A DNA stretch of 64,000 nucleotides, taken from a virus (Duplodnaviria; Caudoviricetes). Below, in pieces: positions 2,330 through 48,406 of the stretch. Every line of letters begins with the position of its first letter. Position 1 is the first letter of the stretch. The stretch spans positions 1 through 64,000 of IMG/VR virus record IMGVR_UViG_3300037424_000485. The stretch is one strand, 5' to 3'. The translations under genes and the position numbers were made by a program. Under the pieces are notes generated by a model. That model was given only the letters and a program-made list of their open reading frames with translations, ran no database searches and was not told the origin of the DNA.

Positions 2330-3964
2330 TTATGCAGGATTTGAATAATTTCTCTCCAAAGCAGCAACCAAAGAAAAGTTATTTGTTGTTGATTGGGTAA
2401 TTGTGCCTGTTGTCTTTACATACTGTCCTGTGCTCAGACCGATAGCAACAACCGTTACAGCAGCTGGTGTTCCAGGTGTTCTACCACCCTGTACATTACC
2501 ATCATAGTCAAAGGTAAATGATACTGAAGCTTGTGCAGATACAAGACCTGTAATAGGAACTGGTACTTCATCAGCATTTTCTACAATAACTGCATTTACA
2601 GTCCCGAAATCACCAGAAGGAACACTAGTAAAGAACATCCAGTATTTAGCATCGGCATCGGATTGTAAGTTGTCATTAAAGTTAATAGAGCCAGCAGCAA
2701 CATAAGGAAATAGTCTTTGAGTACCACCAGTGTCATAAAATTGAATATTGTTAGTATCACTTGATGTGAAATCATCAATAAAAACACCAGTAGCTGTTAC
2801 AAGAGTATCACCAACGAATGATAGAATAGCAGAAGCTGTATCACCCCTAACACTCCCAGGGCCTTCATCAATATCTGTTGTTTGACGAAGACTGTACTGA
2901 ACTTTCTCGTATATCTGTGCTGTAACCGCTCCTAATAGAGATGCAGGAGAAACAGTCCAGTTAACACTTTCAGCAGCTGTGAATGTATCACCAGTAACAT
3001 TAATTACTGTTGCTGTATTTGTACTCACATTGTATGATTTGCCAGCATCAGTACCAGTATGAATTTTTAAAATACCGCCATCGTAATAACCAATAGTCAT
3101 TGCCATGTCTATATCTGTTAAAGCTGTACCAGCGGCTGTGATACTACCAGCACTACCGCAATCAGTATCACATTGAATGATCTTATCAAATGAGTATCCA
3201 ATACCACCGATACGTCTTGTTTGGTTTGTATCAAAATATTTGATATCAATTAGGGTATATGGGGTTGTTCCAGCAATGGTTGCATCAGAATGTGTTACTT
3301 TAAGATCTACCCCATTTGAAAGAGGAAGAGCATATTTCTTATATGTTAGTGTGGTTAATGACTGTGCTGTAAGTAGATCATAGAAGTCATATGATTTAGC
3401 TTCTTCACGAAGATAAATATTGAAGAATCCACGGTAGTCAAAAGCACCATGAGCAGCATCACCAAAAATTTTAATAGCTTGGTTAACAGGGCCTGTCTCT
3501 ACAATATCTATTGGTGTACCACCATTTTCTTGAGTATAATATGCTTGATCTGCATTTGCATCATGGAAAGTACCCAGAGTAGTGAGATTCATGTACTCTT
3601 CAAAATTGACAGTGTTTGCAGCGTTATATAGCCGCCATCCACCATCACGGATCAAGTTGATGGTTTTGGTTGATAGAGCATCATCGGCCCAACTCCAACC
3701 ATTTACAAGCTCAAACTGTTCACCCGTAATGGAAATGAGTGGGAATGGGAATTTAATCAGGGTAGTATCTATTTTCCATTCTTCTTTACATTTTGAATAT
3801 ACACATTGTAATGTAACTCCATCATATGGGTCTAGTGTCGAAGCACCGGAAGTACCAGCTGATAATTGGATTGTTAAATCTGTTGTATTGAAATATAGAT
3901 GACCATCTGCCGCCGCTGAAGTTGTTCCAGTGCCAAGATTGTCAGGGTCTATGATTTTAGCCAT
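2330..3964 (-). CDS. Virion structural protein (tail/baseplate-associated)
   Basis: 544 aa T/G/A/D-rich; ends ERNYSNPA like its neighbour; late operon context. Confidence 0.55.
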   Translation of the reverse strand: MAKIIDPDNLGTGTTSAAADGHLYFNTTDLTIQLSAGTSGASTLDPYDGVTLQCVYSKCKEEWKIDTTLIKFPFPLISITGEQFELVNGWSWADDALSTKTINLIRDGGWRLYNAANTVNFEEYMNLTTLGTFHDANADQAYYTQENGGTPIDIVETGPVNQAIKIFGDAAHGAFDYRGFFNIYLREEAKSYDFYDLLTAQSLTTLTYKKYALPLSNGVDLKVTHSDATIAGTTPYTLIDIKYFDTNQTRRIGGIGYSFDKIIQCDTDCGSAGSITAAGTALTDIDMAMTIGYYDGGILKIHTGTDAGKSYNVSTNTATVINVTGDTFTAAESVNWTVSPASLLGAVTAQIYEKVQYSLRQTTDIDEGPGSVRGDTASAILSFVGDTLVTATGVFIDDFTSSDTNNIQFYDTGGTQRLFPYVAAGSINFNDNLQSDADAKYWMFFTSVPSGDFGTVNAVIVENADEVPVPITGLVSAQASVSFTFDYDGNVQGGRTPGTPAAVTVVAIGLSTGQYVKTTGTITQSTTNNFSLVAALERNYSNPA

Positions 3965-3975
3965 TGTTTATCTCC

Positions 3976-4176
3976 TTAATTTTTAACAATCTCAACGATT
4001 GCTGTGTAATTGCTATTCCAAAGCCTTACTATTGTTGGTGTTATATACTCAAGATAGTCGAAATGAAATATCCCACCAGAATATATTTCAGTATTTTTTA
4101 GATTAAGATCTGATATTTCAAATATCTGTCCGATATGTTTACCGTCTGTTGATTTTAATACCTTTAATTTAATCAT
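3976..4176 (-). CDS. Hypothetical protein
   Basis: 66-aa ORF with AAGGA RBS and late promoter at 4193-4200. Confidence 0.55.
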   Translation of the reverse strand: MIKLKVLKSTDGKHIGQIFEISDLNLKNTEIYSGGIFHFDYLEYITPTIVRLWNSNYTAIVEIVKN

Positions 4177-4213
4177 ATCTTTCCTTTACTATTATTTATA
4201 TATTATTTATAAA

Positions 4214-5785
4214 TTATATTGGATTGTTGTAGTTTCTATCAAATCTTTGAGATATTGGTATTGAAGAGTCATTAGCTCCTAATATATAGTTGATAATTCT
4301 TAAATATTCATATTCTATATTATGGATAACTATATCAATACCATTACCAACGTCAGCACCTTTATATGCAAAAGCAAATGTTGTTGAACTACTTTCAACT
4401 CCGTCAAGTTCTGTGGTTGTTCCAGTTGATAATATTCTTATTTCAGTACCTGCTATAAGACCTGTTAGTGTTAATGTAACTGATTGAACAACAGCTGTTG
4501 TTGCACCAATACCATTTCTAACACTAGGGGATTGTCCACCACCACCAACATTAAGAGTAATCAAACCACCTGAGTTATTGTAAAACATTGCGTCAGCACT
4601 TCCAGAACTCTCGACAAGATTTGATCCTCTTGTACCAGTGTATCCAGTGTCTGTATTTCCAGTCCATGCGTATGTACCTATGGTATCACATCTAACTGCA
4701 TGTTTAGTTCCACTAGATGTAAAATCACAATATGTTACCAGACTTGGGTTGTCGCTTAATATGGCTTTCTCGGTATCGAATGTCTTATCAAAAATACATC
4801 CAGTGAAAGTAGCTCCACCTTGTGTAACTAACCCACATCTACGATATATGGTACTTAGCAATGTAGAGTTTGATTGATATGTAAAAAACCCCATATCAGT
4901 AAAAGCACAGCTTGTTTTTGCAACAACGACATTGACAACAACTACAAAATCACCACGACTAACAGTACCAAGTGCGGTTATATTTACGGTATTCAATTCT
5001 ATATTTGATCCTATCGTGTTTATCTCTATTCTATTAAAGGTTGGTTTTACAAACAGTGTATTATCAATAACTATGCTAACGTTTGCATCTCTAAAATCAA
5101 CAAGAGAACCATACCCAAGATTCATCAAACCTTTGAATTTATAACCGCCTTCGATCTTCTTAAACAATCCCCACTTTGCATTGATATCATCATTAGCTAA
5201 TGCCATACCAGCAAAGGTTGCATAATTTGCTGTCTCTCCACCATTAACTCTAAACTCACCCCTTCCAAAACGGGTAGCGTCCATGCCTTGTGGTGATCCT
5301 TTAGCAACAGCAGTTATTGCTTTACATCCTATTCCACAATATCTATATGTAGTTCCTGGTGTTCCTGTTGTAACATCAGGAGTCACTTCTGGATCTGCTA
5401 CGAAGTTCTGCCAACCACCCTCTGGGTAAGATCCGAAATCATTACCACCAACATAGTATGCTCTATGGTTTGCTGTGTCTGCGCCGATTATCAGTGCCAC
5501 CCCGCCATTTGCTCTTGTATCAACAGCAGCAGCGGCCAGGAAAACCCCCCACATGAAGAAGTTCCATCCAGAAGTCCATGTGATATTTGATCCATAATCC
5601 ACGGCGATAGATCCCATACCAACTACAGCTAGAATTGCAGAACCATGTGATGTTCCTTGAATAGGAAAATCGGTATCAAGTGATTGTGTACGACCAGCTG
5701 TATAATTAGTAAATTCAAGAGAGGAGAAAGCACTTTCAAAAAGAAAAAAGGTTTGAAGGTCTGTTGTATATGTAGGTGTTGCCAT
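4214..5785 (-). CDS. Virion structural protein (tail-associated)
   Basis: 523 aa G/T-rich beta-type composition; ends DRNYNNPI. Confidence 0.55.
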   Translation of the reverse strand: MATPTYTTDLQTFFLFESAFSSLEFTNYTAGRTQSLDTDFPIQGTSHGSAILAVVGMGSIAVDYGSNITWTSGWNFFMWGVFLAAAAVDTRANGGVALIIGADTANHRAYYVGGNDFGSYPEGGWQNFVADPEVTPDVTTGTPGTTYRYCGIGCKAITAVAKGSPQGMDATRFGRGEFRVNGGETANYATFAGMALANDDINAKWGLFKKIEGGYKFKGLMNLGYGSLVDFRDANVSIVIDNTLFVKPTFNRIEINTIGSNIELNTVNITALGTVSRGDFVVVVNVVVAKTSCAFTDMGFFTYQSNSTLLSTIYRRCGLVTQGGATFTGCIFDKTFDTEKAILSDNPSLVTYCDFTSSGTKHAVRCDTIGTYAWTGNTDTGYTGTRGSNLVESSGSADAMFYNNSGGLITLNVGGGGQSPSVRNGIGATTAVVQSVTLTLTGLIAGTEIRILSTGTTTELDGVESSSTTFAFAYKGADVGNGIDIVIHNIEYEYLRIINYILGANDSSIPISQRFDRNYNNPI

Positions 5786-5806
5786 TATATTCCTATATCA
5801 TTTTTA

Positions 5807-7402
5807 TTATTTTACTATTTCAGTGGGTAAAACTATTCTTACAGTAGTTCCCAAGCCCTTCTTACTATTTATATGAATTGTGCCTTCTAATTCTTCTACA
5901 TATTTTTTTACAAAATATAATCCAAGACCTGTACCGCCCTGATTTTCATAAGTAGTCCATTTTTTCTGAAAGCAATGCTTTAAATCATCTTCAGACATTC
6001 CTATACCATTGTCTTTTATTTTAACAACACATCCAAGGTACGTGCATTTAATACTTATCTTAACACTAGGATGTTCTGGTTGTGCTATATCTACAGCTCT
6101 AATCGCATTATTAACTAGGTTCTCTATTATTTGTCTATATTTATAAGGAGATAGTTTTACCTTATAGTTATGTATATTAGATTCATCATAAAATATAAAA
6201 TTTTCTTTTGGTATTTTCTTAGTAGTATCTGCAAATTGTATAGCATTATAACACTTCTGTGTTAGTATGTTTATGTCATAAAACTTTACTTCGTTATAGT
6301 CTTTTGTATGTCCATAATCCTTCATTATTCTTAGAATAGATTTTATATGTTGAACATTTTCTTGTAGTATTTTTGTAGTGATAGGTATTCTTTTACAAAT
6401 CATTGATTTGGGACAATCGTGTACTATTATATTAGGATCTAGATAGTTATATTTCTTTTCTAGTATTTTTAGATATCCTTCCATTCCTGCAATAGGAGAT
6501 GCAAGTTCATGAGAAGTTCCTGTTATGAACAGTTCCTGCATATCTGATAATGTTTTTGATGATATTGTTTGTTCTTCTAATCTAACTATTGATTCTTTAA
6601 TAAATATCCAAGCTATTATCAATGGTGTTATATTAAGTATTGCATGTCTTATTATATCAATAATAAATATACTATTTGGTGTTATTAATAGTTCTAATAT
6701 TTTACCTAAATCATATAACATATACATACCGAATAGTGCGATAATAATATTTGATATCCACGTATCGTTATACTTATAGATTAGAAATATTGGATATAGT
6801 AGTAGTATAAATGATGATCCATGCCATACATAATCCATTATATAGAATTTATTTATAAAAAATATGGATATAATGAATATTAGCAATGATATAGAAATAC
6901 ATAATGATATATATTTCTGTCTATATTTTCTTTCTTTTGAAGTCTCATCCATTACATATCGTAGCAATGCCATTGATATTAATAGCATGGATATCATATG
7001 TAGAAAATGAGATAGTGGGGGGTATAATTCTATTAGAAGGGATGATAGTGGGGTATTTACAAAACTATGTATATGGATTATAAATCCATTAGAAGGATTA
7101 ATTATATCAGTATGAACAACAGTTAATATATAGGTAATTATTGAAATGGTTAATAGTATAATGTTTCTAAGAAACCCCATACCGAATCCCCATATTATAA
7201 GATTGTCTCTTTTCTCATCAAAGAAACCCCCCGTTCTATGAAGAATAGAAATAGAAAATAAAACAATAAACGATCCTGTGCCTATTAAATATCTTACTAT
7301 TTCAGTTTGTACACCTCCACCTTCTCCCGATGTACTTTTTAATATACTAAATATTATATCTAAAAAAGTATTATTTGTAATAATTTCATATAGATCAATC
7401 AT
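5807..7402 (-). CDS. Multi-pass membrane sensor histidine kinase (HisKA + HATPase_c)
   Basis: About 7 hydrophobic segments in the N-half; H-box FITGTSHELASPI, N-box IIENLVNNAIRA, G1 IKDNGIGM, F-box CFQKKWTT, G2 GGTGLGLYFVKKYVEELEGTI. Confidence 0.93.
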   Translation of the reverse strand: MIDLYEIITNNTFLDIIFSILKSTSGEGGGVQTEIVRYLIGTGSFIVLFSISILHRTGGFFDEKRDNLIIWGFGMGFLRNIILLTISIITYILTVVHTDIINPSNGFIIHIHSFVNTPLSSLLIELYPPLSHFLHMISMLLISMALLRYVMDETSKERKYRQKYISLCISISLLIFIISIFFINKFYIMDYVWHGSSFILLLYPIFLIYKYNDTWISNIIIALFGMYMLYDLGKILELLITPNSIFIIDIIRHAILNITPLIIAWIFIKESIVRLEEQTISSKTLSDMQELFITGTSHELASPIAGMEGYLKILEKKYNYLDPNIIVHDCPKSMICKRIPITTKILQENVQHIKSILRIMKDYGHTKDYNEVKFYDINILTQKCYNAIQFADTTKKIPKENFIFYDESNIHNYKVKLSPYKYRQIIENLVNNAIRAVDIAQPEHPSVKISIKCTYLGCVVKIKDNGIGMSEDDLKHCFQKKWTTYENQGGTGLGLYFVKKYVEELEGTIHINSKKGLGTTVRIVLPTEIVK

Positions 7403-7797
7403 CTAACCTGTTCTTTTATATAATCTATAATGTCATCATACCAGTTATCATCTAGTTTATTAAAATAGAGAAGTTCTTTTCTTTTCTCTATTATTCTTTT
7501 TATTTTATGAACTTGCTCACTAGAATCTTCACATCCAGTTAAAAAAATTATCATTGACTCTGGATATACTCTCATTATCTTTTCTGCAATATCCAAACCA
7601 GATACTCCATTTAATATAATATCCAATACTGCAATATCTGGTTTGTTATCATCTAACCAATGTAAAGTCTCTTTTCCACATGCTTTACTAGTGAATGTGT
7701 CAATCTTTACTTTACTTCCTAAATTCTCCATCTGTAGTAGCTCATTAAACGATTGAACTATCAGGTTTTCATCATCGACAAATATAACACTTTTCAT
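7399..7797 (-). CDS. Stand-alone response-regulator receiver (CheY-like)
   Basis: FVDDE acidic pocket, phosphoacceptor D59 (AVLDII), T87 (FLTG), K114; no output domain; ATGA overlap with the kinase. Confidence 0.92.
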   Translation of the reverse strand: MKSVIFVDDENLIVQSFNELLQMENLGSKVKIDTFTSKACGKETLHWLDDNKPDIAVLDIILNGVSGLDIAEKIMRVYPESMIIFLTGCEDSSEQVHKIKRIIEKRKELLYFNKLDDNWYDDIIDYIKEQVR

Positions 7798-8072
7798 TGC
7801 ATTGCCTTAATTACAAACTCTATTATGTTCACAATACCGTATATACCGGAAATAATACTACCTATAAGTATCATGGTAAATTTAACAGATTTGTAAACTA
7901 TTGATGATACATCTTGTTCTAAATCTCTAATTCTCTTCTCTAGTGCATCTACCTCTTTTACAAGTTTTAAATATCTGACTTCAAGGTTCTCATGCTTTAT
8001 ATTTATGTTTGAAAGATGACCAGCTATCGTCAGCTTTAATTTAAGAATAGCCTTATCTAATTCATGTATCAT
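7794..8072 (-). CDS. Coiled-coil protein with C-terminal transmembrane helix (holin/XhlA-like architecture)
   Basis: Heptad region LEVRYLKLVKEVDALEKRIRDLE then hydrophobic FTMILIGSIISGIYGIVNIIEFVI. Confidence 0.5.
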   Translation of the reverse strand: MIHELDKAILKLKLTIAGHLSNINIKHENLEVRYLKLVKEVDALEKRIRDLEQDVSSIVYKSVKFTMILIGSIISGIYGIVNIIEFVIKAMQ

Positions 8073-8563
8073 ATTCTTCTTGTCCTCTTGGCAGTAGTCA
8101 AATTGCGGAATGTTTTAACAAGGGTTCTTTTCACCTTTGATGAAAAGTCTCTAGCCCATGTAGATACAACAGCAGATTCCATTTCATCCATATGGATATG
8201 TTGAGCACCTTGTATATAGTAATTAGGCTTAAAGAAATATCTTCTTACAGCACCGCTTAGATATGGATACTTATTCTGAACTAAATCCCATGTAAATTCT
8301 ATATCACCATTGGAACGTGCATACTCATATTGCCATTCTTGAGTAAATTTCTTTCTTAGTGTTCTGGGTATATAGGAAAGATTCACGCCTTGAAAATATC
8401 GATGCTGGTGTCCTGTCCTAGGATGTATACCGTCTACCTTATACATTAAAATTATGATAGGTTCTGGGTCATTTTCCCAAGCCTGATACCGAAATTTATA
8501 TAACTCGCCCGACTTCCACACTACGCCATGTGAACGACTTTTTAATTTTAAGCTAATAGCCAT
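8069..8563 (-). CDS. gp2: DNA end-protector protein (T4 gp2-like)
   Basis: YKFRY...DPEPIII...FQGVNLSYIP...KYPYLSGAVRRY resembles gp2 family; near gp4. Confidence 0.65.
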   Translation of the reverse strand: MAISLKLKSRSHGVVWKSGELYKFRYQAWENDPEPIIILMYKVDGIHPRTGHQHRYFQGVNLSYIPRTLRKKFTQEWQYEYARSNGDIEFTWDLVQNKYPYLSGAVRRYFFKPNYYIQGAQHIHMDEMESAVVSTWARDFSSKVKRTLVKTFRNLTTAKRTRRI

Positions 8564-9395
8564 TTATTTCCTTTATATCAAATATGCCTTTAAATAGTTC
8601 TTCTTTTGTTATATCACAATGATAATCTTTGGATATATTATCCTTCTCTAATAACATTTGTAGATTATATATGTGTGATATAATATATGGCGGTATGTTG
8701 TTTTTAAACCCTCTCATGATGCTATATCTATGATCTAAATGATATTTACCCTTACCTCTAGGTAAATTATCAGGATTTATTATACTTTTATATCGTTTAT
8801 AATGTCTTTCTGATATCCTATAACAAATAACTCTATATAATTCCCATTCTGTTTTTATATCTTCTAATTTACAACCTCTTATATTTTCCCAATATTTTTT
8901 GTGTTGTTCTCCTCTTTGTGTGATAGTGTTTCTGTATTTTATTGAACTTTTTACACTATCACTCATATTATCTCTATACTCTTTTGTCTGTCTTGTTTTT
9001 ATATATTTTGTTCTTGTAATTGGATTTAACCAAGCTTTCTTTTGACTACAGCTATTACATATAAAATTTGAAGTAAATAGATCATATGCATTTGTTTGAT
9101 ATTCATTTTCACATTCTTTACAATAAACTATTAATTTTATTGATTTGTTTTTAGGTAAAAATACATCTAATGATATACCATCTACTCGTTCTTTTATATT
9201 ATGTCTTATATCTTCTGGTATATTACAAGATATTAAAGAGTGTTTATTTTTCCAACCTTCCTTACATGCACAACTAGGACATAACTGTATATCTTTTTTT
9301 CTTGTTATATAATAATAACCTTTCCATTCCTTATTACATCTATCACATTTAAATATACAACATGAAGTATTTGGTATTCTATTTCCTATTTGCAT
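8553..9395 (-). CDS. HNH-type homing endonuclease with CxxC zinc ribbons
   Basis: Several CxxC pairs; YHLDHRYSIMRGF...ISHIYNLQML; late promoter at 9404-9411. Confidence 0.7.
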   Translation of the reverse strand: MQIGNRIPNTSCCIFKCDRCNKEWKGYYYITRKKDIQLCPSCACKEGWKNKHSLISCNIPEDIRHNIKERVDGISLDVFLPKNKSIKLIVYCKECENEYQTNAYDLFTSNFICNSCSQKKAWLNPITRTKYIKTRQTKEYRDNMSDSVKSSIKYRNTITQRGEQHKKYWENIRGCKLEDIKTEWELYRVICYRISERHYKRYKSIINPDNLPRGKGKYHLDHRYSIMRGFKNNIPPYIISHIYNLQMLLEKDNISKDYHCDITKEELFKGIFDIKEINGY

Positions 9396-9420
9396 TATAA
9401 TATTATTTATAAGGAGCCAT

Positions 9421-9888
9421 TTATTTACCGTAATATGGAAGACCTTGCTCTTTATGCCATGCTTTTAATTCATCACGCACAGCCTGTGCAATTTTCTGAT
9501 ATGTGTCATAGTCAACAACATAATCAACACCGGATTTAAAAGATTTATTTGAAAAGAATTTCTTCTCAACATTTTGTGTTAATACACCAGCTGATATTGC
9601 TGTAGTGCCTTTAACTCCAATCATACCACTCTTTGATAGTTGAATGTCTTTATATTTATTATCTATATCTTCCCCTAGGAAGTTACTAATCTTATTTTCA
9701 ATTTTCATATTCTCTTCTTTTAAACCTAATTTATTTTTTGTTATTGTTGTTACTAATCCCCAAAATAAAGGATCGCTCTCTTGTTTTTCTTTTTTTGCAA
9801 TGGCCTTGGCTTCATCCCATGCTTTTTCAGCAGTTTGTAAAGATACCCCTGCTTTATCTGCTAGGCTTTTTAATGCTGGTGTTGGCAT
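9421..9888 (-). CDS. Hypothetical protein (possible prohead/core-associated; internal MKIENKISNFLGE motif)
   Basis: 155-aa ORF with RBS in late operon. Confidence 0.5.
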   Translation of the reverse strand: MPTPALKSLADKAGVSLQTAEKAWDEAKAIAKKEKQESDPLFWGLVTTITKNKLGLKEENMKIENKISNFLGEDIDNKYKDIQLSKSGMIGVKGTTAISAGVLTQNVEKKFFSNKSFKSGVDYVVDYDTYQKIAQAVRDELKAWHKEQGLPYYGK

Positions 9889-9897
9889 ATTATTTCC

Positions 9898-10698
9898 TTA
9901 TTTACATTTCCTCATATCATAGTATTTACAGCCATCTTGTTTATGTACTTCTTTATGACATTTTTTACATAATGTAATACAGTTATCAACATCTGCACTT
10001 TCAATAGGATTAATTTCTATCCCTTCAAAATGGTGACATTGTAAGTAATCACCTCTGGTTCCACATTTCTGACATGTCCAATTATCTCTTTCTAGCACCA
10101 TGTTACTTAGCTCGGATTGAACCTCTATACCGTTTGGAACAATAAGACCTGCTTTAATCATATCTCTTTTTATTAGGTCTTCTGTTTTTATTCCATATGA
10201 TGAACAGTTCTTTTTACATTTATCAGAACAATATAAATTTTGCTCTCCCCGATAATTTTCATTTCCTTTTAAAGTTTGTATCCTTCTCACTGTTTGATTT
10301 AAACTAGGTCTAAACCATTTACTACATTCACTGTGATGGCATTTAACTTCTAATACATTGGCATCATTTATTGATCTTCTACATTTGATACCATATGGTG
10401 AAAGTTGTGGCATATATGTTTCAAATGTTGCTAGATGTCTTTTTACAGTACCGCCTCTCCAACATGGATTGTTTTTACCTTTTATATTTATATTTTGGCT
10501 TTTATGAATAGATGAACAAGTTTTTCCACAAAAACTTCCTTTACCTTCATCAATTAATCTTTGTTTTGTAAAATATACATCTCCGCATATTTTACAGCTT
10601 TCTGTTCCTTCTCTTAATACTAAATATCTTTTATTATATCTAAATTTGCTGTTATCTGTAATTTTAAATTTATCTATATTATCCCATGATATTTTCAT
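9898..10698 (-). CDS. HNH homing endonuclease (window family, copy 1)
   Basis: VLERDNWTCQKC...CHHFEGIEINPIESADVDNCITLCKKCHKEVH. Confidence 0.88.
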   Translation of the reverse strand: MKISWDNIDKFKITDNSKFRYNKRYLVLREGTESCKICGDVYFTKQRLIDEGKGSFCGKTCSSIHKSQNINIKGKNNPCWRGGTVKRHLATFETYMPQLSPYGIKCRRSINDANVLEVKCHHSECSKWFRPSLNQTVRRIQTLKGNENYRGEQNLYCSDKCKKNCSSYGIKTEDLIKRDMIKAGLIVPNGIEVQSELSNMVLERDNWTCQKCGTRGDYLQCHHFEGIEINPIESADVDNCITLCKKCHKEVHKQDGCKYYDMRKCK

Positions 10699-10703
10699 AT
10701 TAT

Positions 10704-11177
10704 TTATTTAATCAATTCTTTCTCTGTTATTTTTATGAATTTATAACCCATACGAGCACAATATCTTTCAGCTGCTTTCCATTTAGCACTGTTTATAGCC
10801 CATGTCTTATCTTCGTATAACTTGGTTTTTAATGTCTTACTCTTTCTCGGTTTAGGCTGTATAGTTTCCTTATATGGTTTGATCTCTACTAAATATTTTA
10901 TTATATTATTAGGAGATTCTTGTACAGTGATGAGGAAATCAACATGGTATTTACTAGTCATATACAACCCTTTTATATTCCTCTTAAATGGGTGTTTATA
11001 ATATATCACTATATCTTCACTACTCCAAGATAGTATCTTAGGATTATGGTCACAATATCTACAGAATATTTTTTCCCAGCTACTCATCAAACGTATAGGA
11101 TATGTCCCTATATATTTTTTTGTATTGATAGGTATATAATTACCACATTTAGCCTTCTGTTTTTTTACAAAGTTCAT
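10704..11177 (-). CDS. gp4: Head-completion nuclease (T4 gp4-like, TnsA-type PD-(D/E)xK)
   Basis: SSWEKIFCRYCDHNPKILSWSSEDIVIYY...YHVDF...LVEIKPYKET...NSAKWKAAERYC. Confidence 0.88.
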   Translation of the reverse strand: MNFVKKQKAKCGNYIPINTKKYIGTYPIRLMSSWEKIFCRYCDHNPKILSWSSEDIVIYYKHPFKRNIKGLYMTSKYHVDFLITVQESPNNIIKYLVEIKPYKETIQPKPRKSKTLKTKLYEDKTWAINSAKWKAAERYCARMGYKFIKITEKELIK

Positions 11178-11261
11178 ATAATTTTTCTTTTGTTATACTA
11201 CATTTTATATGTCGTTTTGGGTCAAAATTACATTTTATATAAGACATTTAAAGAGTCCCTA

Positions 11262-11651
11262 TTACTCCCAAGTAAGGTCTACCTTTTTCAAATAATCTAT
11301 AAGAGACTTTTTACTTTCTTCATTAAAATTCATCCACTTAGATTTTCCTTTCTCACCAGATACTTGAAATGTAACATGTTTAGTACCAGCGTGCATAAGC
11401 TCTCTTGAATAGTATGAAGAACTCTCTTCTTTCAAGCTCTCTTCTTTCAAGCTCTCATCTTTATCAGCTTCATCGTCACCTTTCCAACCTTTATCAATTG
11501 CATCAAAAAATTCTTTCTTCTTATCGCCTTCTAGCTCATCAGGTGAAGATACCCCAAATTTCTTTAACATTTTCTCAAAGAATGCTTTATATTCTTCTTT
11601 GTCACCATTTTCTTCATCAAGGTATAGGCCGATTTTTTTTAATATGTCCAT
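11262..11651 (-). CDS. Acidic hypothetical protein, possible prohead core protein (likely start MDILKKIGLYLDEE)
   Basis: AAGGA RBS before 11651 removes the overlap with the upstream ORF; LKEE repeats resemble gp21-type cleavage sites. Confidence 0.5.
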   Translation of the reverse strand: MDILKKIGLYLDEENGDKEEYKAFFEKMLKKFGVSSPDELEGDKKKEFFDAIDKGWKGDDEADKDESLKEESLKEESSSYYSRELMHAGTKHVTFQVSGEKGKSKWMNFNEESKKSLIDYLKKVDLTWE

Positions 11652-11673
11652 TTTATTTTCCTTTTTTTGTTGT

Positions 11674-12024
11674 TTATAGTTGAAATCCAAGCTTTCCAGT
11701 AGTCTTTGTATCATACTGTTTCTCTTGAGATTTCATATACTCTTCAGAAGGCCCCATCTCTTTTCCTAATAGACTTGGCCTTCCAACCGATTCCCATTCA
11801 TCTGGATTTTCTTTTTTCCATTTACTAAATGCTCTTATATATTTTATTGATATGATGAACACAAAAATAAAACTATATATCACTATCTTATTTATATTTA
11901 TATTATTTCCATCTATAAAATTATCAAGTTCAAAGTATAATTGTATTATTGGATATAGAATGAATATATCCAATGACTGAGCTTCTAAGAACTTTAATAT
12001 GTAGCTGAAATTTTTGTCTATCAT
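11674..12024 (-). CDS. Hypothetical membrane protein
   Basis: Hydrophobic IVIYSFIFVFIISI segment; first gene after the divergent promoter. Confidence 0.45.
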   Translation of the reverse strand: MIDKNFSYILKFLEAQSLDIFILYPIIQLYFELDNFIDGNNININKIVIYSFIFVFIISIKYIRAFSKWKKENPDEWESVGRPSLLGKEMGPSEEYMKSQEKQYDTKTTGKLGFQL

Positions 12025-12055
12025 ATAGATTCCTTATTATATTTGATTATGTATG

Positions 12056-12069
12056 TATTTATATAAATA
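12056..12069. promoter_or_regulatory. Palindromic back-to-back T4-type late promoters TATTTATATAAATA
   Basis: Perfect 14-bp palindrome containing TATAAATA on both strands at the strand-switch point. Confidence 0.7.
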
Positions 12070-12099
12070 CTATTATATGAATGTCTAGATTAACCAATT

Positions 12100-12339
12100 A
12101 TGGAGATATTTGATGCCATGTTTGATAATAAAATTGGAAAATATATACTGAAGAAGAATGGATATCCAGATATACCAGTGGGTTTGCTACAATATGGTGT
12201 TGATTATCTTAAAGTAAAAGACATAGACAAAAAAAGAGCGACAGTTTTATTGAAAATAATCAATAATGAGATTGATTGTTTTGGTTTAGATAAAGAAAGA
12301 GCATATAAAGCAATAGGTATAAAAAATGAAAAATATTGA
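12100..12339 (+). CDS. Hypothetical protein
   Basis: 79-aa ORF after late promoter. Confidence 0.5.
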   Translation: MEIFDAMFDNKIGKYILKKNGYPDIPVGLLQYGVDYLKVKDIDKKRATVLLKIINNEIDCFGLDKERAYKAIGIKNEKY

Positions 12340-12460
12340 TGAAACAGTAGAGAAATATGGTTATGTTGTAGAAGACACCAGTAAGTTTAAAGTTGGTGAT
12401 ATGGTTAACTTCCATAATGATTTAAAAAAGCTGCAACATGGAAAGCACAAAATCCAATAA
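12326..12460 (+). CDS. Small hypothetical protein MKNIDETVEKYGYVVE... (44 aa, not in ORF track)
   Basis: Translated by eye; fills the gap between neighbours. Confidence 0.4.
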   Translation: MKNIDETVEKYGYVVEDTSKFKVGDMVNFHNDLKKLQHGKHKIQ

Positions 12461-13405: not shown

Positions 13406-14938
13406 ATGAGTAAATTCACAACCAGCACTGTAGGTGCAGACAAAACCGTAAACCATGAGGGCGCACCAGCCTATAAAATGACTCCTGAATTGGAGCTTTA
13501 TAGCTTGGTTTGCACCACAACACTATCAAACACATTCTATACAACATCAAATGACACCGTGACCAGAATTAGATCGTTGATCAAACAGGTATCACCTGAG
13601 TTTGTTGCTAAACTTGCTGTATATGCCAGAGAAAGCATGTATCTGCGATCAATCCCTCTTGTCCTTGTTGTGGAGCTTGCAATGGCATCAACCCCTCAAT
13701 ATAAAGAGGGTCTTGTTAGCAAAACTACAGAGCGTGTGATTCAGAGAGCTGATGAAATTACTGAGATTCTTGGTTACTATGCTATGGCCAATGGTCGTAC
13801 AGGAAGTAAGAAGCTAGGTAAGTTATCAAATCAATTGAAGAAAGGTATTGCTGAATCATTTCATAAATTCGATGAATATGCCTTTGGAAAATATAATCGC
13901 AAGACTGATGTTCGTCTTAGAGATGCCCTATTTCTTACACATCCTAAACCATTGGATGATATAGAAAAAGAGCTGTTCCGTAAGATCGCTCAAGATGAAT
14001 TGGCCACTCCTGAGACATGGGAAGTTAAAATGTCTGAAGCTGGAAAGGCTGATACAGAAGGGACTACCAAGAAACAAGTATGGGAAGACATGATCGACTC
14101 AGATAAGTTTGGATATATGGCATGTATTAGAAACTTGAAAAATATTCTCGAATCTGAAGTTTCATCGGGACATATTGATAAGGTATGTTCACAGATAAGT
14201 GATCGTGATAATGTTCTTAGAAGCAAGCAGTTTCCTTTCAGGTTTCTATCAGCTTATCGCATGCTTGTTAGCAGTAAACCAAGCTTTGATACTGGTAGGG
14301 TGTTGGAAGCACTTGAATTGGCAATGATTCATTCTGCTGAAAATATCCCTATGTTTGATGGTGAGAACGTTAAAATTGCATCTGATGTATCTGGATCAAT
14401 GTGTTCACCTATCTCAGATAAATCAACTGTTCAAATGTATGATGTTGGTATTGTTCTTTCTATGTTGCTACAACATAAATGTAAGAGAGTAGTTACGGGT
14501 ATTTTTGGTACAAGCTATCTGGAACAAACCCTTCCAAAGAATAACATTTTAGCAAATTCCATGAAAATGGGTTCTTTATCTAGTAAGGTTGGCTGGGCCA
14601 CTAATGGTCATCTTATTATTGAAGATGCTATCAAAAAGAAACAAGATCTTGACCGTATCATGATTTTTACCGATATGCAGATTTGGGATAATAATAGGAT
14701 TTCTTATAATCATAATAGTGTACCCTCTATACAGAATTTATGGGTTACATATAAAAAAATGAATCCAAAATGTAAGCTAATCATTTTTGATCTTGCTGGT
14801 TATGGTACAAGTCCATTATCATTAAGAGATAATGATGTATTTTTGATTGCTGGATTCTCTGATAAAGTATTCACTATGCTTGATAGTATAGAAAAAGGTA
14901 GTGATGTATTAGATGTAATCAATAATATCATCATCTGA
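13406..14938 (+). CDS. rsr: Ro60/TROVE-domain RNA-binding protein with C-terminal vWA
   Basis: NHEGAPAY...ELYSLV, YARESMYLRSIP, TPETWEV, MACIRNL, PFRFLSAY, vWA IASDVSGSM and IMIFTDMQ. Confidence 0.92.
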   Translation: MSKFTTSTVGADKTVNHEGAPAYKMTPELELYSLVCTTTLSNTFYTTSNDTVTRIRSLIKQVSPEFVAKLAVYARESMYLRSIPLVLVVELAMASTPQYKEGLVSKTTERVIQRADEITEILGYYAMANGRTGSKKLGKLSNQLKKGIAESFHKFDEYAFGKYNRKTDVRLRDALFLTHPKPLDDIEKELFRKIAQDELATPETWEVKMSEAGKADTEGTTKKQVWEDMIDSDKFGYMACIRNLKNILESEVSSGHIDKVCSQISDRDNVLRSKQFPFRFLSAYRMLVSSKPSFDTGRVLEALELAMIHSAENIPMFDGENVKIASDVSGSMCSPISDKSTVQMYDVGIVLSMLLQHKCKRVVTGIFGTSYLEQTLPKNNILANSMKMGSLSSKVGWATNGHLIIEDAIKKKQDLDRIMIFTDMQIWDNNRISYNHNSVPSIQNLWVTYKKMNPKCKLIIFDLAGYGTSPLSLRDNDVFLIAGFSDKVFTMLDSIEKGSDVLDVINNIII

Positions 14939-16399: not shown

Positions 16400-16603
16400 A
16401 TGACAACAGTAATCTATATTTTTGCCGGTGTTTTATGGGGTTGTTTCGCCGGTTTTATGCAAAACAAAATCCACCGCGAAGCTGGATTGTTAAAAATGGT
16501 ACTAGTGATTTTAACGAATACTTTTCTATGGCCTGTCTGCATGGCCCTGGCTGTTTTTAATCTTGCGAGTGGTAGACATGACAAATATTTTATTGACACT
16601 TAA
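16400..16603 (+). CDS. Small membrane protein ending inside an attC-like inverse core site
   Basis: Two hydrophobic segments; stop TAA lies within ACTTAAC. Confidence 0.55.
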   Translation: MTTVIYIFAGVLWGCFAGFMQNKIHREAGLLKMVLVILTNTFLWPVCMALAVFNLASGRHDKYFIDT

Positions 16604-16676
16604 CGGCGAACTAAGCCGCCACTGAACTGACCTAAAAGCGCATACTGTAGTCTGGTCAGCTTTTCATCTATTAAGT
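16598..16676 (+). mobile_element. Degenerate integron attC-like site
   Basis: ACTTAAC (16598-16604) ... ATTAAGT (16670-16676, 6/7 complementary); inner AAGC/GCTT and CTGACC/GGTCAG pairs; 79 nt. Confidence 0.4.
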
Positions 16677-16696
16677 ATAATATAATATAGTAGTGT

Positions 16697-16730
16697 AAAA
16701 CCCCGTTCCTTAATTGGAATGGGGTTTTTT
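16697..16730 (+). terminator. Rho-independent terminator
   Basis: AAAACCCCGTTCC/GGAATGGGGTTTT stem followed by a T-run. Confidence 0.8.
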
Positions 16731-16741
16731 ATTGCACTTTA

Positions 16742-16749
16742 TATAAATA
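16742..16749 (+). promoter_or_regulatory. T4-type late promoter for the lysis cassette and internal-protein array
   Basis: TATAAATA directly after the terminator and before the operon. Confidence 0.7.
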
Positions 16750-16782
16750 CAATTGACTAATCCTATACAAGGAGGAAATATT

Positions 16783-17067
16783 ATGTCAATTGAAAAGAAA
16801 AAGATTTTTAGTTTTGAGTATGTACGTGAAGTGGTGATGAAAATTATTGATAATCTAATATCTGCCAAGGTCTGGATTATCGTGGGGGTATTCTCTATGT
16901 CTGCTAAGATGGTATATGATGGTATGATAACAGGTGGTGATTTTGTAGGTCTTAATACCGTCCTTATAGCCACAGTTGTAGCTATGCGTGAAGTTTGGAA
17001 GACAGAGAAAGTAAGAGCATTATCAACCAGCAATGAAACTGATAAAATAAATGACATGAAGGCATAA
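16783..17067 (+). CDS. Probable holin (2 TM)
   Basis: GGAGG RBS; hydrophobic VWIIVGVFSM and FVGLNTVLIATVVA; first gene of the lysis cluster. Confidence 0.5.
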   Translation: MSIEKKKIFSFEYVREVVMKIIDNLISAKVWIIVGVFSMSAKMVYDGMITGGDFVGLNTVLIATVVAMREVWKTEKVRALSTSNETDKINDMKA

Positions 17068-17069
17068 AT

Positions 17070-17417
17070 ATGTTTGAATCAATAGGTAATTATGGAGTTA
17101 TTGGAGGAGGATTAATAGCCTTTGGTATCTTCTTATATACATGGTTTTTTGGGAAAAGCGGTAGAACTGCAAAGTTTGACCTTAAAAAGATAATGGATAA
17201 GGTACAAAAAGACTCAGAAGATAAAATTGAGTCTATAAGTCACGAACACTCTCAAATAGAAGTTAAACTGAAGAATAAGGAAAAGCTTGCAGTGGAGAGA
17301 CAGATAGCCATTCGCAAAATTGCTGATAATGCCGCTGTTCAGGTTGAAGCTATAATGAAAGAAAAAGATCTTTCAAAATTAACGGGTCAATATAATAGTG
17401 ATTTAGAGGACTTGTAA
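17070..17417 (+). CDS. i-spanin-like protein (N-terminal TM, coiled coil)
   Basis: GVIGGGLIAFGIFLYTWFF anchor then charged helical domain. Confidence 0.5.
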   Translation: MFESIGNYGVIGGGLIAFGIFLYTWFFGKSGRTAKFDLKKIMDKVQKDSEDKIESISHEHSQIEVKLKNKEKLAVERQIAIRKIADNAAVQVEAIMKEKDLSKLTGQYNSDLEDL

Positions 17418-17941
17418 TGAAACGTATATTGTTGATATTGTTATGCTTATCATGTATGGCATGTGCTCCAAAAGAATTTATACCAAGATCAGATGCATTA
17501 GATTTAAAATGGGATAGAACCCCCTCCTATAACAACCAAGAAGATATACAGAGAATAAAAGATATAGGACAGGTTGCATTCTCTCCTAAATATGTGTTAG
17601 AAAACAACACAGAGACAACACCATCAGAGGCCACTCATATAATTTTAACTCGTAAGGAATGGTATGGCATTGGCGTTATTGTCGAAAAAGCAAAGGCATA
17701 TAAAGAACTGGCAGAGCAAGAGGAATCCCTTATAAATACTCATATAGATATTATAAACAGCCAGAAAGAATATATCGAACTGGAAAGACGTAAAAGTATA
17801 GAGTATAGAGATCTATATATGATTTCAGAAAATTCTTTTCGTCAGGAAGAATATAGACATAAACAAGATAATCTAATAAACAAAATTGGTCATTATATTA
17901 TTGTTATCGGTGGTATTGCTTTAGGTATATCAAGTTTATAA
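17417..17941 (+). CDS. Lipoprotein, spanin-like, with additional C-terminal hydrophobic tail
   Basis: MKRILLILLCLSCMAC lipoprotein-like signal; C-terminal YIIVIGGIALGISSL. Confidence 0.5.
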   Translation: MKRILLILLCLSCMACAPKEFIPRSDALDLKWDRTPSYNNQEDIQRIKDIGQVAFSPKYVLENNTETTPSEATHIILTRKEWYGIGVIVEKAKAYKELAEQEESLINTHIDIINSQKEYIELERRKSIEYRDLYMISENSFRQEEYRHKQDNLINKIGHYIIVIGGIALGISSL

Positions 17942-17950
17942 GGAATTATT

Positions 17951-18460
17951 ATGAAAGTATTATCAGATTATATAAAATTAGACAATGGAAAATATAGCAA
18001 TTTTACTTATGGAGAATTTGTCAAGAGTGATACCGCTCTAAGATTAGGTATTAACAACACTCCAAATCAAGACCAATGGAAAAATATAGAGCTATTGGTT
18101 AGAAATATTCTTCAGCCTGTTAGGGATAGGTTCGGCCCAATTAGAATTACCAGTGGATATAGAAGTGTTGCATTGTGTATTGCGGTGGGATCATCAAGCA
18201 CCAGCAATCATACCAGAGGTCAAGCAGCTGATATAGAGCCTTACGATAACAACATCAAATTGATAGATATTATCACATTTATCGATGATGAGCTTGAGTA
18301 TAGAGAATTGATATTAGAGTTCTCACCAGATGGATGGTGTCATGTTGCCTATAGAGAAGGTGGTAATAATCGTCAATTAAAACTAAAAGATAAAAATCAT
18401 GATTATGATAAGATAGATTTAGACTATCTTCAAAGCATTTATAAACCATCTATTGTTTAG
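17951..18460 (+). CDS. Endolysin, peptidase M15A family
   Basis: ITSGYRS...SNHTRGQAADI...WCHV zinc-peptidase motifs. Confidence 0.85.
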   Translation: MKVLSDYIKLDNGKYSNFTYGEFVKSDTALRLGINNTPNQDQWKNIELLVRNILQPVRDRFGPIRITSGYRSVALCIAVGSSSTSNHTRGQAADIEPYDNNIKLIDIITFIDDELEYRELILEFSPDGWCHVAYREGGNNRQLKLKDKNHDYDKIDLDYLQSIYKPSIV

Positions 18461-47856: not shown

Positions 47857-48071
47857 TTATTAAATATATGAAAATATTATTAAGGATATTTCTATTCATC
47901 AGACAAATTTCTTTATTACGAGATATAGAGTTATATCACCCTGAGTCGCCGGGGATGAAGATCACTATCACTCGTTCTTGGATTGGTAGATTATCAAAAC
48001 CAAAAGATTTTGCAACAATATCAGAGTGTTGCAAATCCTATAGACTTAGAAGAAAATATAAAATGTTATGA
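47853..48071 (+). CDS. Small hypothetical protein
   Basis: ATGA coupling on both sides. Confidence 0.4.
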   Translation: MIIKYMKILLRIFLFIRQISLLRDIELYHPESPGMKITITRSWIGRLSKPKDFATISECCKSYRLRRKYKML

Positions 48072-48406
48072 AAATATTATTAGTTGATGATATAAGAACA
48101 CCAGATAATATGAATCTTATAGACTCATATTTTTTGAAGTATATTAATGAAGTTGTAGAGTGGGATGTGGCTATAAATTATGCTGAAGCTATCCAATATC
48201 TTATGGAGAATAGTTATGATCTTATTACATTAGATCATGACCTTGGTGAAATAAAAACTGGTTATGATGTTGCCAACTGGTTGGAAAATTCTATTGTTAA
48301 TGGTAATATCATACATTCTGAAATTAGATGTCATTCTGCAAATCCCGTTGGTAGATTACGTATAAATAAGGTTATAACAAGCATAGAGAGGTTTAGAAGA
48401 CTATAA
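48068..48406 (+). CDS. Cyclic-phosphate-processing receiver-like domain protein
   Basis: LLVDDIRTP, ITLDHDLG..KTGYDVANWLE, HSANPVG. Confidence 0.75.
   Translation: MKILLVDDIRTPDNMNLIDSYFLKYINEVVEWDVAINYAEAIQYLMENSYDLITLDHDLGEIKTGYDVANWLENSIVNGNIIHSEIRCHSANPVGRLRINKVITSIERFRRL

Follow-up and report, generated by a model that had tools for sequence, protein, structure and literature searches.

A kinase, receiver and tail-anchored protein module in the predicted late gene block of an uncultured T4-like phage, with a possible role in lysis timing

In the window (the whole 64,000-nt stretch of virus DNA analysed here), three adjacent genes encode a sensor histidine kinase (HK), a stand-alone receiver (REC) and a 92-aa tail-anchored protein, and phages that carry this trio probably steer a late membrane event, for example the timing of lysis, by phosphorylation signalling; such control is held probable because at least eight other virus-like lineages retain the trio and it stands twice beside lysis genes. 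The full chain, in which the trio would be a phage-owned, vertically inherited three-protein signalling module that is made with the late proteins gp4 and gp2 and acts in lysis, is advanced with slightly less than even confidence, and control of lysis timing is the leading, if tentative, reading of its role. In the usual view, a simple holin clock times lysis in lytic phages, and the known sensory inputs (T4 lysis inhibition, arbitrium and phage quorum-sensing receptors) are few and work without a two-component phosphotransfer of their own. No papers on such a phage module were found in PubMed Central or bioRxiv. The trio is complete, conserved, confined to virus-like contigs and linked by comparison to lysis genes, and offers a testable case of a virulent phage that would sense during infection.

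The source phage is uncultured, T4-like and from sediment. Its major capsid protein shares 33-36% identity at most with those of cultured phages, and the window holds no tRNA gene. According to the ORF listing, all three genes lie on the minus strand, the HK at 5807-7402, the REC at 7399-7797 and the small protein at 7794-8072. They follow a gene for a gp2-like DNA end protector (8069-8563, minus strand; phrog_429, 4e-7, with a weak match of the orthologue in the related contig L002 to PF26869, Phage_T4_gp2), which is assigned to gp2 by its profile match together with a gp4 gene upstream. An ATGA sequence at each of the three junctions (gp2/small protein, small protein/REC and REC/HK) chains the four genes by overlaps, and the trio is translationally coupled to gp2; the first-pass annotation had described such an ATGA-linked set behind gp2, and every ORF of it is present as described. 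The HK is the sole HATPase_c protein of the 204-kb contig and the REC its sole canonical receiver. A receiver-like ORF at 48068-48406 was considered as a second partner of the kinase and rejected, as it is a cREC domain.

The surroundings suggest when the trio might be made. A gp4-like head completion gene (10704-11177, minus strand; phrog_218, 6e-37; PF08722) heads the co-directional block in relatives, and a 280-aa homing-endonuclease-like ORF (8553-9395, minus strand; phrog_5104), absent from relatives, is inserted upstream of gp2. The T4-late-promoter-like motif TATAAATA occurs at 9404-9411 on the minus strand (reading from 9411 to 9404), 8 nt before the ATG of the homing-endonuclease-like ORF. 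This copy had been annotated as the late promoter of the operon; the motif is indeed there, but as an operon promoter it is a candidate only, because the adjoining ORF is missing in relatives and genome-wide enrichment is weak (113 occurrences where a zero-order expectation for this AT-rich genome gives about 70, an excess of about 1.6-fold). In L002 the motif lies 35 nt upstream of gp4, and copies flank the block from gp4 to the HK on both sides. Scans of 3900-12400 were no better than chance both for sigma-70 promoters (65 sites versus 56 +/- 7 in shuffles) and for terminators (two found versus 2.1 expected). From its position, late expression of the trio is rather likely.

The kinase (531 aa) combines an N-terminal seven-transmembrane (7TM) sensor, a DHp region with an inserted C-x5-C loop and a CA domain, as delimited by Pfam matches, a family alignment and a full-length AF2 model. 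The CA (ATP-binding) domain (5807-6286, minus strand) carries the N, G1 and G2 boxes and matches HATPase_c at 3e-24 (86 bits against a gathering cut-off of 26.4). The DHp (phospho-acceptor) region (residues 274-372; 6287-6583, minus strand) scores 19.8 bits for HisKA, below the cut-off of 26.9, the match covering no more than profile positions 2-31 of 66; the score falls short because the C-x5-C insert interrupts the DHp hairpin, and we take the region for a divergent HisKA. The phospho-acceptor H298 (6509-6511, in SHELASP), N428/N432, D464-x-G466-x-G468 and G490-x-G492-x-G494 are invariant in eight to nine relatives, and among the trio kinases the catalytic residues are unchanged at 31-69% identity. 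The claim of an intact two-component system is thereby borne out: all catalytic residues are in place and invariant in relatives. So, too, is that of a Cys pair between the H-box and the ATPase domain, namely C330 and C336 (6395-6415) in the hairpin loop, which are invariant in nine of nine trio kinases; with Cys453, Cys458 and Cys477 of the CA domain they make five invariant cytoplasmic cysteines, which may add a redox or metal input. Compared by fold, the full-length kinase model resembled generic multi-TM kinases only.

The sensor (residues 1-273; 6584-7402, minus strand) was delimited by an AF2 model, a profile search and a conservation table, with its N-terminus outside and its C-terminus inside, an orientation with which the charges agree by the positive-inside rule as read from the sequence. 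The model, built on 60 sequences, reaches a pLDDT of 94 and a pTM of 0.88; it exposes almost nothing outside the membrane, has a small His-containing beta-hairpin between TM2 and TM3, and encloses a conserved polar core of N80, H132, H194, D231 and R252. The profile search found 174 relatives at E<=1e-3, and the family occurs in more than 100 bacterial signalling proteins, fused to HK, PAS/GAF-HK, hybrid HK or GGDEF-EAL outputs. Eight family members gave no match at E<=10 to the Pfam models 7TMR-DISM_7TM, MASE1-4, HisKA_7TM and 5TMR_LYT, and four N-terminal domains no 7TM-sensor match at E<=0.1 in NCBIfam; an Atlas feature search gave MASE4, MASE3 and HisKA_7TM clusters scores of only 0.81-0.84, which is under the Atlas lead threshold. 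The sensor thus represents a family without a Pfam or NCBIfam model or a solved structure. Fold searches with the confident 7TM model brought up GPCRs and rhodopsins, which it resembles only as a generic 7TM bundle (TM about 0.5, E >= 7e-4). In the tree of 7TM domains a branch with an SH-aLRT of 100 separates nine trio kinases from the 51 other homologues, and the gene context of a bacterial homologue (L013, Chloroflexota) holds no trio.

The receiver (132 aa; 7399-7797, minus strand) matches Response_reg at 1.2e-12 (48.5 bits against a cut-off of 30.2), and profile matches to receiver domains in the PDB and the alignment agree. It carries D8, D9, D59 (7621-7623), T87, Y111 and K114, as well as invariant Cys40 and Cys89. 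In the family D8, D9, D59 and K114 are invariant, being unchanged at 31-79% identity among the trio receivers; position 87 holds T or S, and five of six sequences have an aromatic residue at K-3. Searches of Pfam, PHROG and NCBIfam found no further domain in its 132 aa, which agrees with the claim that a DNA-binding output domain is absent. Phosphotransfer from kinase to receiver is very likely. Defensive two-component systems with buffer receivers exist (Detocs), and a stand-alone receiver made late could drain phosphoryl groups; it has to be considered that the phage HK and REC serve as a sink for phosphate, or as a decoy, against a Detocs-like defence in the host or host envelope-stress signalling that would abort infection. 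A decoy of this kind could do without a 7TM kinase of its own and without a conserved membrane partner, the module is tied to late rather than early genes, and Pfam and PHROGs revealed no defence or anti-defence gene near the trio, all of which makes counter-defence highly improbable.

The third protein (7794-8072, minus strand) consists of an N-terminal amphipathic helix and a coiled coil, followed by a TM helix near the C-terminus (about residues 65-87; nt 7812-7880), after which only about five residues remain. Positional orthologues occur in every lineage, and it is the sole part besides HK and REC of which this is true; its helix bears the motif (A/G)-G-x-L-(S/D)-(N/T). The gene had been called holin-like, and this stands only in part: a TM protein coupled to HK and REC is present, but no holin or XhlA model matches significantly. 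For the window's protein no holin family of Pfam or PHROGs was found at E<=0.01, and phrog_689 ('holin') matched orthologues below threshold, at 4e-4 in L012 and 0.011 in L002. XhlA (PF10779) was rejected, since scores of 13.1 and 12.8 bits fall short of the 34.7 required and at E<=1 its model responds to 13 of 14 control genomes as well. An hhalign comparison with SPP1 gp24.1 gave a probability of 0.3%, which carries no information, because the same test, lacking power, also missed the positional orthologue in L026 (1.5%).

A contact between REC and the 92-aa protein, for which the first-pass annotation had asked for a structure prediction, is predicted with an ipSAE of 0.70 (0.70, 0.73 and 0.67 in the single runs), the best control reaching 0.00. 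The three runs share at least 95% of their contacts, with a partner pLDDT of 86, and the predicted interface joins REC residues 10-23, 59, 61, 88-90 and 114-121 to residues 3-26 of the small protein (7995-8066, minus strand), a helix that bears the motif kept in all lineages. In calibration 58 of 80 solved complexes and two of 110 mismatched pairs attained this ipSAE mark, counts which hold only roughly here because the input was our own alignments of six rows. In many solved structures receivers use the alpha1/alpha5 face and the active site to bind DHp or Hpt helices; the predicted interface is this usual face, and the score may therefore partly echo the model's memory of such complexes. On balance the contact seems somewhat more probable than its absence. 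The small protein was rejected as an Hpt because its His19 is not conserved, being replaced by Y, K or R in other lineages.

The same contact could be read otherwise, the small protein being an accessory of the pair, either a membrane-tethered receiver phosphatase or competitor (in the logic of CheZ or Spo0E) or a co-sensor of the 7TM domain (in that of MgrB or SafA), with the output elsewhere. D59, K114 and the T87 loop all lie within the predicted contact, with a conserved S/D and N/T of the small protein alongside, and many receiver phosphatases place an amide or acid side chain there; moreover, the near lack of extracytoplasmic surface in the HK is usual for membrane-partner-dependent kinases. 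The candidate catalytic residues vary by lineage, however (S-N, D-T, S-G, T-S), and no alternative output is conserved beside the trio, so that an accessory role is unlikely. If the receiver is indeed held by the small protein, the small proteins would form a family of tail-anchored receiver partners without prior description.

The trio in the order small protein, REC, HK is found in about nine metagenomic lineages, in five of them behind gp2. The order from gp4 to gp2, small protein, REC and HK is kept in L002/L003, L004-L006 and L007, and the trio stands alone in L011/L027, L012/L014/L015, L023, L024, L025 and L026. No full-length relative was found in 185,579 species genomes or in 50,697 GenBank phage records. 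A megablast of positions 4000-12000 against GenBank phages gave no match; pattern scans of IMG/VR with the HK and its family alignment found no relative once the window's own record was left out, and a metagenome scan returned L003 again and nothing further. Bacterial closest homologues and a recent insertion had been named in advance as the outcome that would speak against a phage signalling system, and a search for the HK-REC-membrane protein synteny had been proposed; the closest homologues are in fact virus-like contigs with the same synteny, and on the evidence of these sequences the trio is not a recent bacterial insertion.

Selection on the trio points in the same direction. Against the nearest relative dN/dS is 0.10-0.18 for the trio and 0.16 for gp2, values at which dS is saturated, as it also is in comparisons with more distant relatives; the near-identical copies (L002/L003 and L004-L006) give no signal, because only 0-1 bases of the trio differ. 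The two-component pair is judged to be phage-owned and under purifying selection. It could still be supposed that a bacterial pair was acquired by chance and is a passenger or decaying cargo without a role for the phage, since PHROGs contain histidine-kinase-like and receiver-like families (phrog_10912, phrog_857 and phrog_731) and phage records hold host-derived kinase fragments. Catalytic residues kept down to 31% identity, a dN/dS of about 0.1-0.2, a synteny fixed in several lineages, the retained coupling to gp2 and the want of a full-length bacterial relative leave this supposition scarcely credible.

Some distant lineages carry additional signalling parts. In L011/L027 and L014 the kinase has a C-terminal PilZ domain, at 22.9 bits for P0121 against a cut-off of 22.5 and at 21.0 bits for L014, with RxxxR and DxSxxG visible; L014 and L025 have a REC-HD-GYP gene directly upstream (Response_reg 1e-25, HD_5 1e-37), and L025 also has an MCP-signal protein. 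The PilZ and REC-HD-GYP domains point to a c-di-GMP link in these lineages, and not to lysis. They also favour a host-directed role, in which HK and REC would rewire c-di-GMP, motility, biofilm or a host receiver network rather than lysis, the small protein tethering or tuning REC; stand-alone receivers such as CheY, DivK and CpdR act on varied cell targets. The window lineage, however, has no PilZ, HD-GYP or other signalling gene, and the sole extra part kept in all lineages is the tail-anchored protein, for which reasons host-directed signalling is considered improbable.

The positions of lysis genes bear on the leading reading, control of lysis timing. The window has an ordinary lysis cassette at 16400-18460 on the plus strand, with a 67-aa two-TM protein, a 94-aa TM protein, a 115-aa protein with an N-terminal TM and a coiled coil, a 174-aa protein with a lipoprotein signal and a C-terminal TM, and an endolysin of M15_3 type (17951-18460; PF08291, 6e-15; phrog_894, 5e-32), the small proteins being read from hydropathy; the contig has no match to PF00959 or PF01510. 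In L026 the trio comes directly after an endolysin (phrog_894, 1.3e-32) that is 54% identical to that of the window, the small-protein gene overlapping the endolysin end by 8 nt, and in L025 an endolysin and five small TM proteins, together a lysis cassette, precede the signalling genes. The proposal of a lysis-timing role thus finds support in the trios behind lysis genes in L026 and L025, but the window's own cassette, with its own holin and spanin candidates, is separate, 8 kb from the trio and on the opposite strand, and no lysis gene adjoins the trio in the window, L002, L004, L007, L011, L014, L023 or L024.

A mechanism for such control can be outlined. The 7TM kinase, lying in the inner membrane, would take up a cue in or at the membrane by way of the polar core (H132, H194, N80, D231 and R252), and the five invariant cytoplasmic cysteines may add to its sensing; it would then autophosphorylate at H298, and the phosphoryl group would pass to D59 of REC. 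REC would bind the conserved N-terminal helix of the small protein with its phosphorylation face, made up of alpha1, alpha5, D59, K114 and the T87 loop, and, because kinase and small protein need the same face of REC, either the phosphorylation state or competition by the kinase could decide whether REC holds the small protein. The output would lie in the membrane state of the small protein, and the most likely purpose would be to fix the time of lysis, or to put it off, according to the envelope state of the infected cell. A more specific version, a phosphorylation-gated lysis clock with sensory input in which REC clamps the tail-anchored helix and so holds or frees a holin- or antiholin-type event, unrelated to T4 RI/RIII and with an ancestral tie to c-di-GMP, is rather doubtful in all its parts taken together.

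Each component resembles parts of known systems and departs from them. In being a polytopic N-terminal sensor that is fused in modular fashion to different outputs, the 7TM domain is like 7TMR-DISM, MASE1-4, HisKA_7TM and 5TMR-LYT, but it is matched by none of their models. HK and REC have in common with CheA/CheY, KinA/Spo0F, DivJ/DivK and CpdR the H, N, G1 and G2 boxes and a receiver about 130 aa long that bears the DD/D/T/K set. In CheA/CheY-type systems the output is protein-protein contact and not DNA binding, as is proposed for this receiver; the trio differs from them in its host genome (the late block of a lytic-type T4-like phage), in a 7TM sensor outside the libraries, in the C-x5-C insert of the DHp and in a dedicated gene for a tail-anchored partner. 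The predicted contact uses the same receiver face and active site as DHp helix 1, Hpt proteins (Spo0B and ChpT), CheZ, Spo0E and Rap, whereas the small protein, unlike those docking partners, is membrane-anchored and makes contact by a single helix. Its size and layout (83-92 aa, a cytoplasmic coiled coil and then a C-terminal TM) are those of XhlA (PBSX) and SPP1 gp24.1, the latter of which adjoins the endolysin as the small protein of L026 does; it lacks a significant sequence match to XhlA, for which no receiver binding is known. L014, L025, L011 and L027 resemble RpfC/RpfG and PilZ receptors in having a REC-HD-GYP protein, a kinase PilZ domain or both, and the window lineage has neither.

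The closest parallels in logic concern lysis itself. In Staphylococcus and Bacillus, LytSR controls the holin- and antiholin-like lrgAB and cidAB, and the trio likewise would tie a polytopic, intramembrane-sensing kinase to small membrane proteins that bear on lysis. LytS, however, has a 5TMR-LYT sensor and LytR is a LytTR DNA-binding transcription regulator, whereas the trio matches no 5TMR-LYT, has no DNA-binding domain and would make its link by the predicted direct contact of receiver and protein. T4 lysis inhibition, by the holin T and the antiholins RI and RIII, works without phosphorylation, no sequence relation to it was noticed, and the trio's phage has separate holin and spanin candidates and an endolysin; what the two have in common is a T4-like phage and a membrane-level system that could delay lysis on cue.

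The window covers the initial 64 kb of an IMG/VR viral contig of 204,431 bp (CheckV 85% complete), which is present in sediment metagenomes. Since its gp23-type major capsid protein shows at best 33–36% identity to cultured phages, and gp4-like and gp2-like proteins are also encoded, the phage can be assigned to a deep, uncultured T4-like lineage. Four minus-strand ORFs are connected by ATGA overlaps, the last three as the first-pass annotation had claimed: a gp2-like gene (8069–8563), a small tail-anchored protein of 92 aa (7794–8072), a stand-alone receiver of 132 aa (REC; 7399–7797) and a histidine kinase of 531 aa (HK; 5807–7402). The last three genes form the trio considered here. In the window only, the gp4–gp2 block is broken by two minus-strand homing-endonuclease-like ORFs (phrog_5104 at 8553–9395; HNH PF01844 at 9898–10698), which are missing from the related contigs L002, L004 and L007. 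The window also encodes, on the plus strand, a Ro60/TROVE and vWA protein (13406–14938; PF05731 1.5e-30, PF25045 6e-9).

The two-component pair is intact, and its catalytic residues are invariant among relatives. The HATPase_c domain of HK scores 86 bits, far over threshold, and H298 (in SHELASP) is present along with the N, G1 and G2 boxes. HisKA scores 19.8 bits, under the threshold of 26.9, because an insert interrupts the DHp hairpin. This insert holds the Cys pair previously noted between the H-box and the ATPase domain; the pair is real, and its C-x5-C form is invariant in all nine trio kinases, as are Cys453, Cys458 and Cys477 of the CA domain in eight of eight. In REC, D8, D9, D59 and K114 never vary, and T or S occupies position 87; also invariant are Cys40 (7678–7680) and Cys89 (7531–7533), the latter at T87+2, adjoining the active site. 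The 132 aa of REC hold no domain beyond the receiver, in agreement with the stand-alone receiver first described. HK and REC are the sole canonical kinase and the sole canonical receiver of the whole contig. A 112-aa cREC domain protein (48068–48406, plus strand; PF20274 3.4e-20; motif LDHDLG) was rejected as a partner of HK; it is of the ‘cyclic-phosphate processing receiver’ type, tied to NAD+/ADP-ribose systems (PMC7824862).

The sensor of HK, modelled by AlphaFold2 from a 60-sequence alignment, is predicted with confidence (pLDDT 94, pTM 0.88) to consist of seven TM helices, with a short beta-hairpin joining TM2 to TM3 and the last TM helix continuing straight into the DHp helix. Lys/Arg-bearing loops alternate according to the positive-inside rule, with the N-terminus out and the C-terminus in. 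The domain matches zero Pfam models, even at E<=10, and zero NCBIfam models, and fold searches return only a generic 7TM-bundle resemblance to GPCRs and rhodopsins. A profile of the domain retrieves 174 proteins at E<=1e-3 from 1.84 billion representatives; those inspected, from Anaerolineae, Caldilineaceae and Methylomonas, comprise histidine kinases, hybrid kinases, PAS/GAF kinases and one GGDEF-EAL protein. Residues conserved over 140 bacterial homologues (P129-x-x-H132, H194 or R, D/E231, R252, Y149, Y164 and E270) look like an intramembrane ligand or ion site; position 80 is Asn in nine of nine phage kinases and Glu in bacteria.

A word-indexed search of 5.8 billion proteins yields five full-length relatives of HK (43–69% identity), below which scores fall steeply to generic kinase cores. 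The contigs of these relatives share the order gp4 ... gp2, 90–93-aa protein, REC, HK. Profiles of the sensor domain, the small protein and the receiver recovered further lineages; in these (L011/L027, L012/L014/L015, L023, L024, L025 and L026) REC and HK are immediately preceded by a coiled-coil protein that bears a TM helix at its C-terminus. L024 has a different sensor domain but keeps the receiver, the small protein and a kinase core with C-x5-C, and the L026 kinase aligns with that of the window over 342 residues at 31% identity (E 3e-43), Cys loop included. A recent insertion with bacterial closest homologues would have refuted the first-pass annotation, and this refutation fails: the closest relatives lie on virus-like contigs and carry the same synteny, and a pattern-based scan over 185,579 species genomes turned up no relative of full length. 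GenBank phages give generic kinase-domain matches only. In a 7TM-domain tree, unrooted and with phage rows skewed in composition, the nine trio kinases occupy one side of a branch (SH-aLRT 100) against 51 other homologues. By sequence comparison, the trio is a phage-restricted family and not a recent insertion. Against the nearest relative, dN/dS is 0.18 for HK, 0.10 for REC and 0.18 for the small protein, similar to gp2 at 0.16, with dS saturated; that the trio is carried as a passenger is unlikely. Three trio neighbours, otherwise unrelated (L007 5661–6341, L002 11604–12671 and L011 8734–9177), share the N-terminus MLID(N/S). In the L012/L014 lineage, the signalling genes are closely preceded by small Cys-rich proteins that bear a CWEF/CWDY...C motif (L014 8359–8631, L012 3–257), and in L011/L027 a 400-aa polytopic membrane protein without family match is encoded in overlap with the 3' end of the kinase gene (L011 11928–13130).

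In the small protein, an amphipathic helix and a coiled coil make up a cytoplasmic part of about 60 residues, followed by one TM helix and about five residues beyond. It is fast-evolving, yet around residue 17 one motif, (A/G)-G-x-L-(S/D)-(N/T), returns across lineages as AGHLSN in the window, AGRLDT in L011, AGKLDT in L014 and AGITSK in L026. Its description as holin-like could not be upheld: there is no significant holin or XhlA match. With the XhlA model the protein reaches 13 bits, where 34.7 is the cut-off, and this model also produces hits at E<=1 in 13 of 14 control genomes. The XhlA-like gp24.1 of phage SPP1 has the same architecture. A negative hhalign comparison with gp24.1 carries no weight, since the L026 orthologue, assigned by position, scores just as negatively.

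Complex prediction with REC and residues 1–66 of the small protein, using our own alignments and three controls, scored 0.70 (runs 0.70, 0.73 and 0.67; best control 0.00); in the tool's calibration, 58 of 80 solved complexes reach this mark, as do 2 of 110 mismatched pairs, counts that are rough here owing to those alignments. The three runs share at least 95% of contacts, with a partner pLDDT of 86, and place residues 3–26 of the small protein on REC alpha1 (10–23), D59/61, 88–90 and 114–121. The model supports binding of REC to the small protein. Receivers present this alpha1/active-site face to DHp helices, Hpt helices and several phosphatases in solved structures, so the score may partly reflect the model's memory of complexes of that kind. 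The predicted face is also that for the kinase, and REC would therefore be unable to hold both partners simultaneously. Because its His19 varies between lineages, the small protein does not belong to the phosphotransfer proteins. It may be an accessory that acts as a co-sensor or phosphatase, the output lying elsewhere, a reading that we consider doubtful.

The trio is probably expressed late, since its translation is coupled to that of gp2, which in T4 is a late gene. In L002, TATAAATA lies 35 nt upstream of gp4, with a second copy right behind the kinase stop codon. The late promoter proposed for the window exists as a motif (9411->9404), but as a promoter of the trio it is no more than putative: it stands 8 nt ahead of the inserted endonuclease ORF, and such motifs are only about 1.6-fold enriched genome-wide. 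Scans for sigma-70 promoters and for terminators gave results at the level of chance.

Control of lysis timing is ranked first among the possible functions, as a tentative reading. No lysis gene lies near the trio in the window or in most relatives. The window's lysis cassette is separate (16400–18460, plus strand) and comprises two holin candidates (a two-TM 67-aa protein and a 94-aa TM protein), a 115-aa protein with an N-terminal TM helix and coiled coil, a spanin-like 174-aa protein with a lipoprotein signal and C-terminal TM, and an M15_3 endolysin (phrog_894 5e-32). In L026 the order is spanin-like 135-aa protein, 96-aa protein, endolysin, 86-aa small protein, REC, HK and Peptidase_C92 protein; its endolysin (phrog_894 1.3e-32; 54% identity to that of the window) overlaps the small-protein gene by 8 nt. 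L025 has an endolysin (phrog_7 6e-51) and five small TM proteins, after which come an MCP-signal protein, a REC-HD-GYP protein and the trio. These two gene orders connect the trio with lysis.

Host-directed or c-di-GMP signalling ranks after lysis timing, level with the accessory role, and is likewise doubtful. The kinases of L011/L027 and L014 (L011 10001–11941; L014 10794–12686; L027 538–2484) carry a C-terminal PilZ domain (RxxxR ... DxSxxG), which in the kinase P0121 scores 22.9 bits (cut-off 22.5), and REC-HD-GYP proteins lie immediately upstream of the trio in L014 (8642–9979) and L025 (2578–5539). The REC-HD-GYP proteins, with the MCP-signal protein of L025, would link these phages to c-di-GMP and to chemoreceptors; the window lineage, however, has neither PilZ nor REC-HD-GYP. 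A counter-defence role is unlikely. The observation of the first-pass annotation is confirmed, and its interpretation is partly supported.

Searches of PubMed Central and bioRxiv did not find such a module described; pelagiphages carry kinases next to curli genes, a different setting (PMC9599517). LytSR-lrgAB/cidAB and T4 lysis inhibition are the nearest systems in logic, but the trio does not qualify as a member of either. By type it belongs to the two-component systems whose receiver has a single domain, and it is set apart by its T4-like phage owner, a family found only on virus-like contigs, an undescribed 7TM sensor, a Cys-bearing DHp insert and a dedicated tail-anchored partner.
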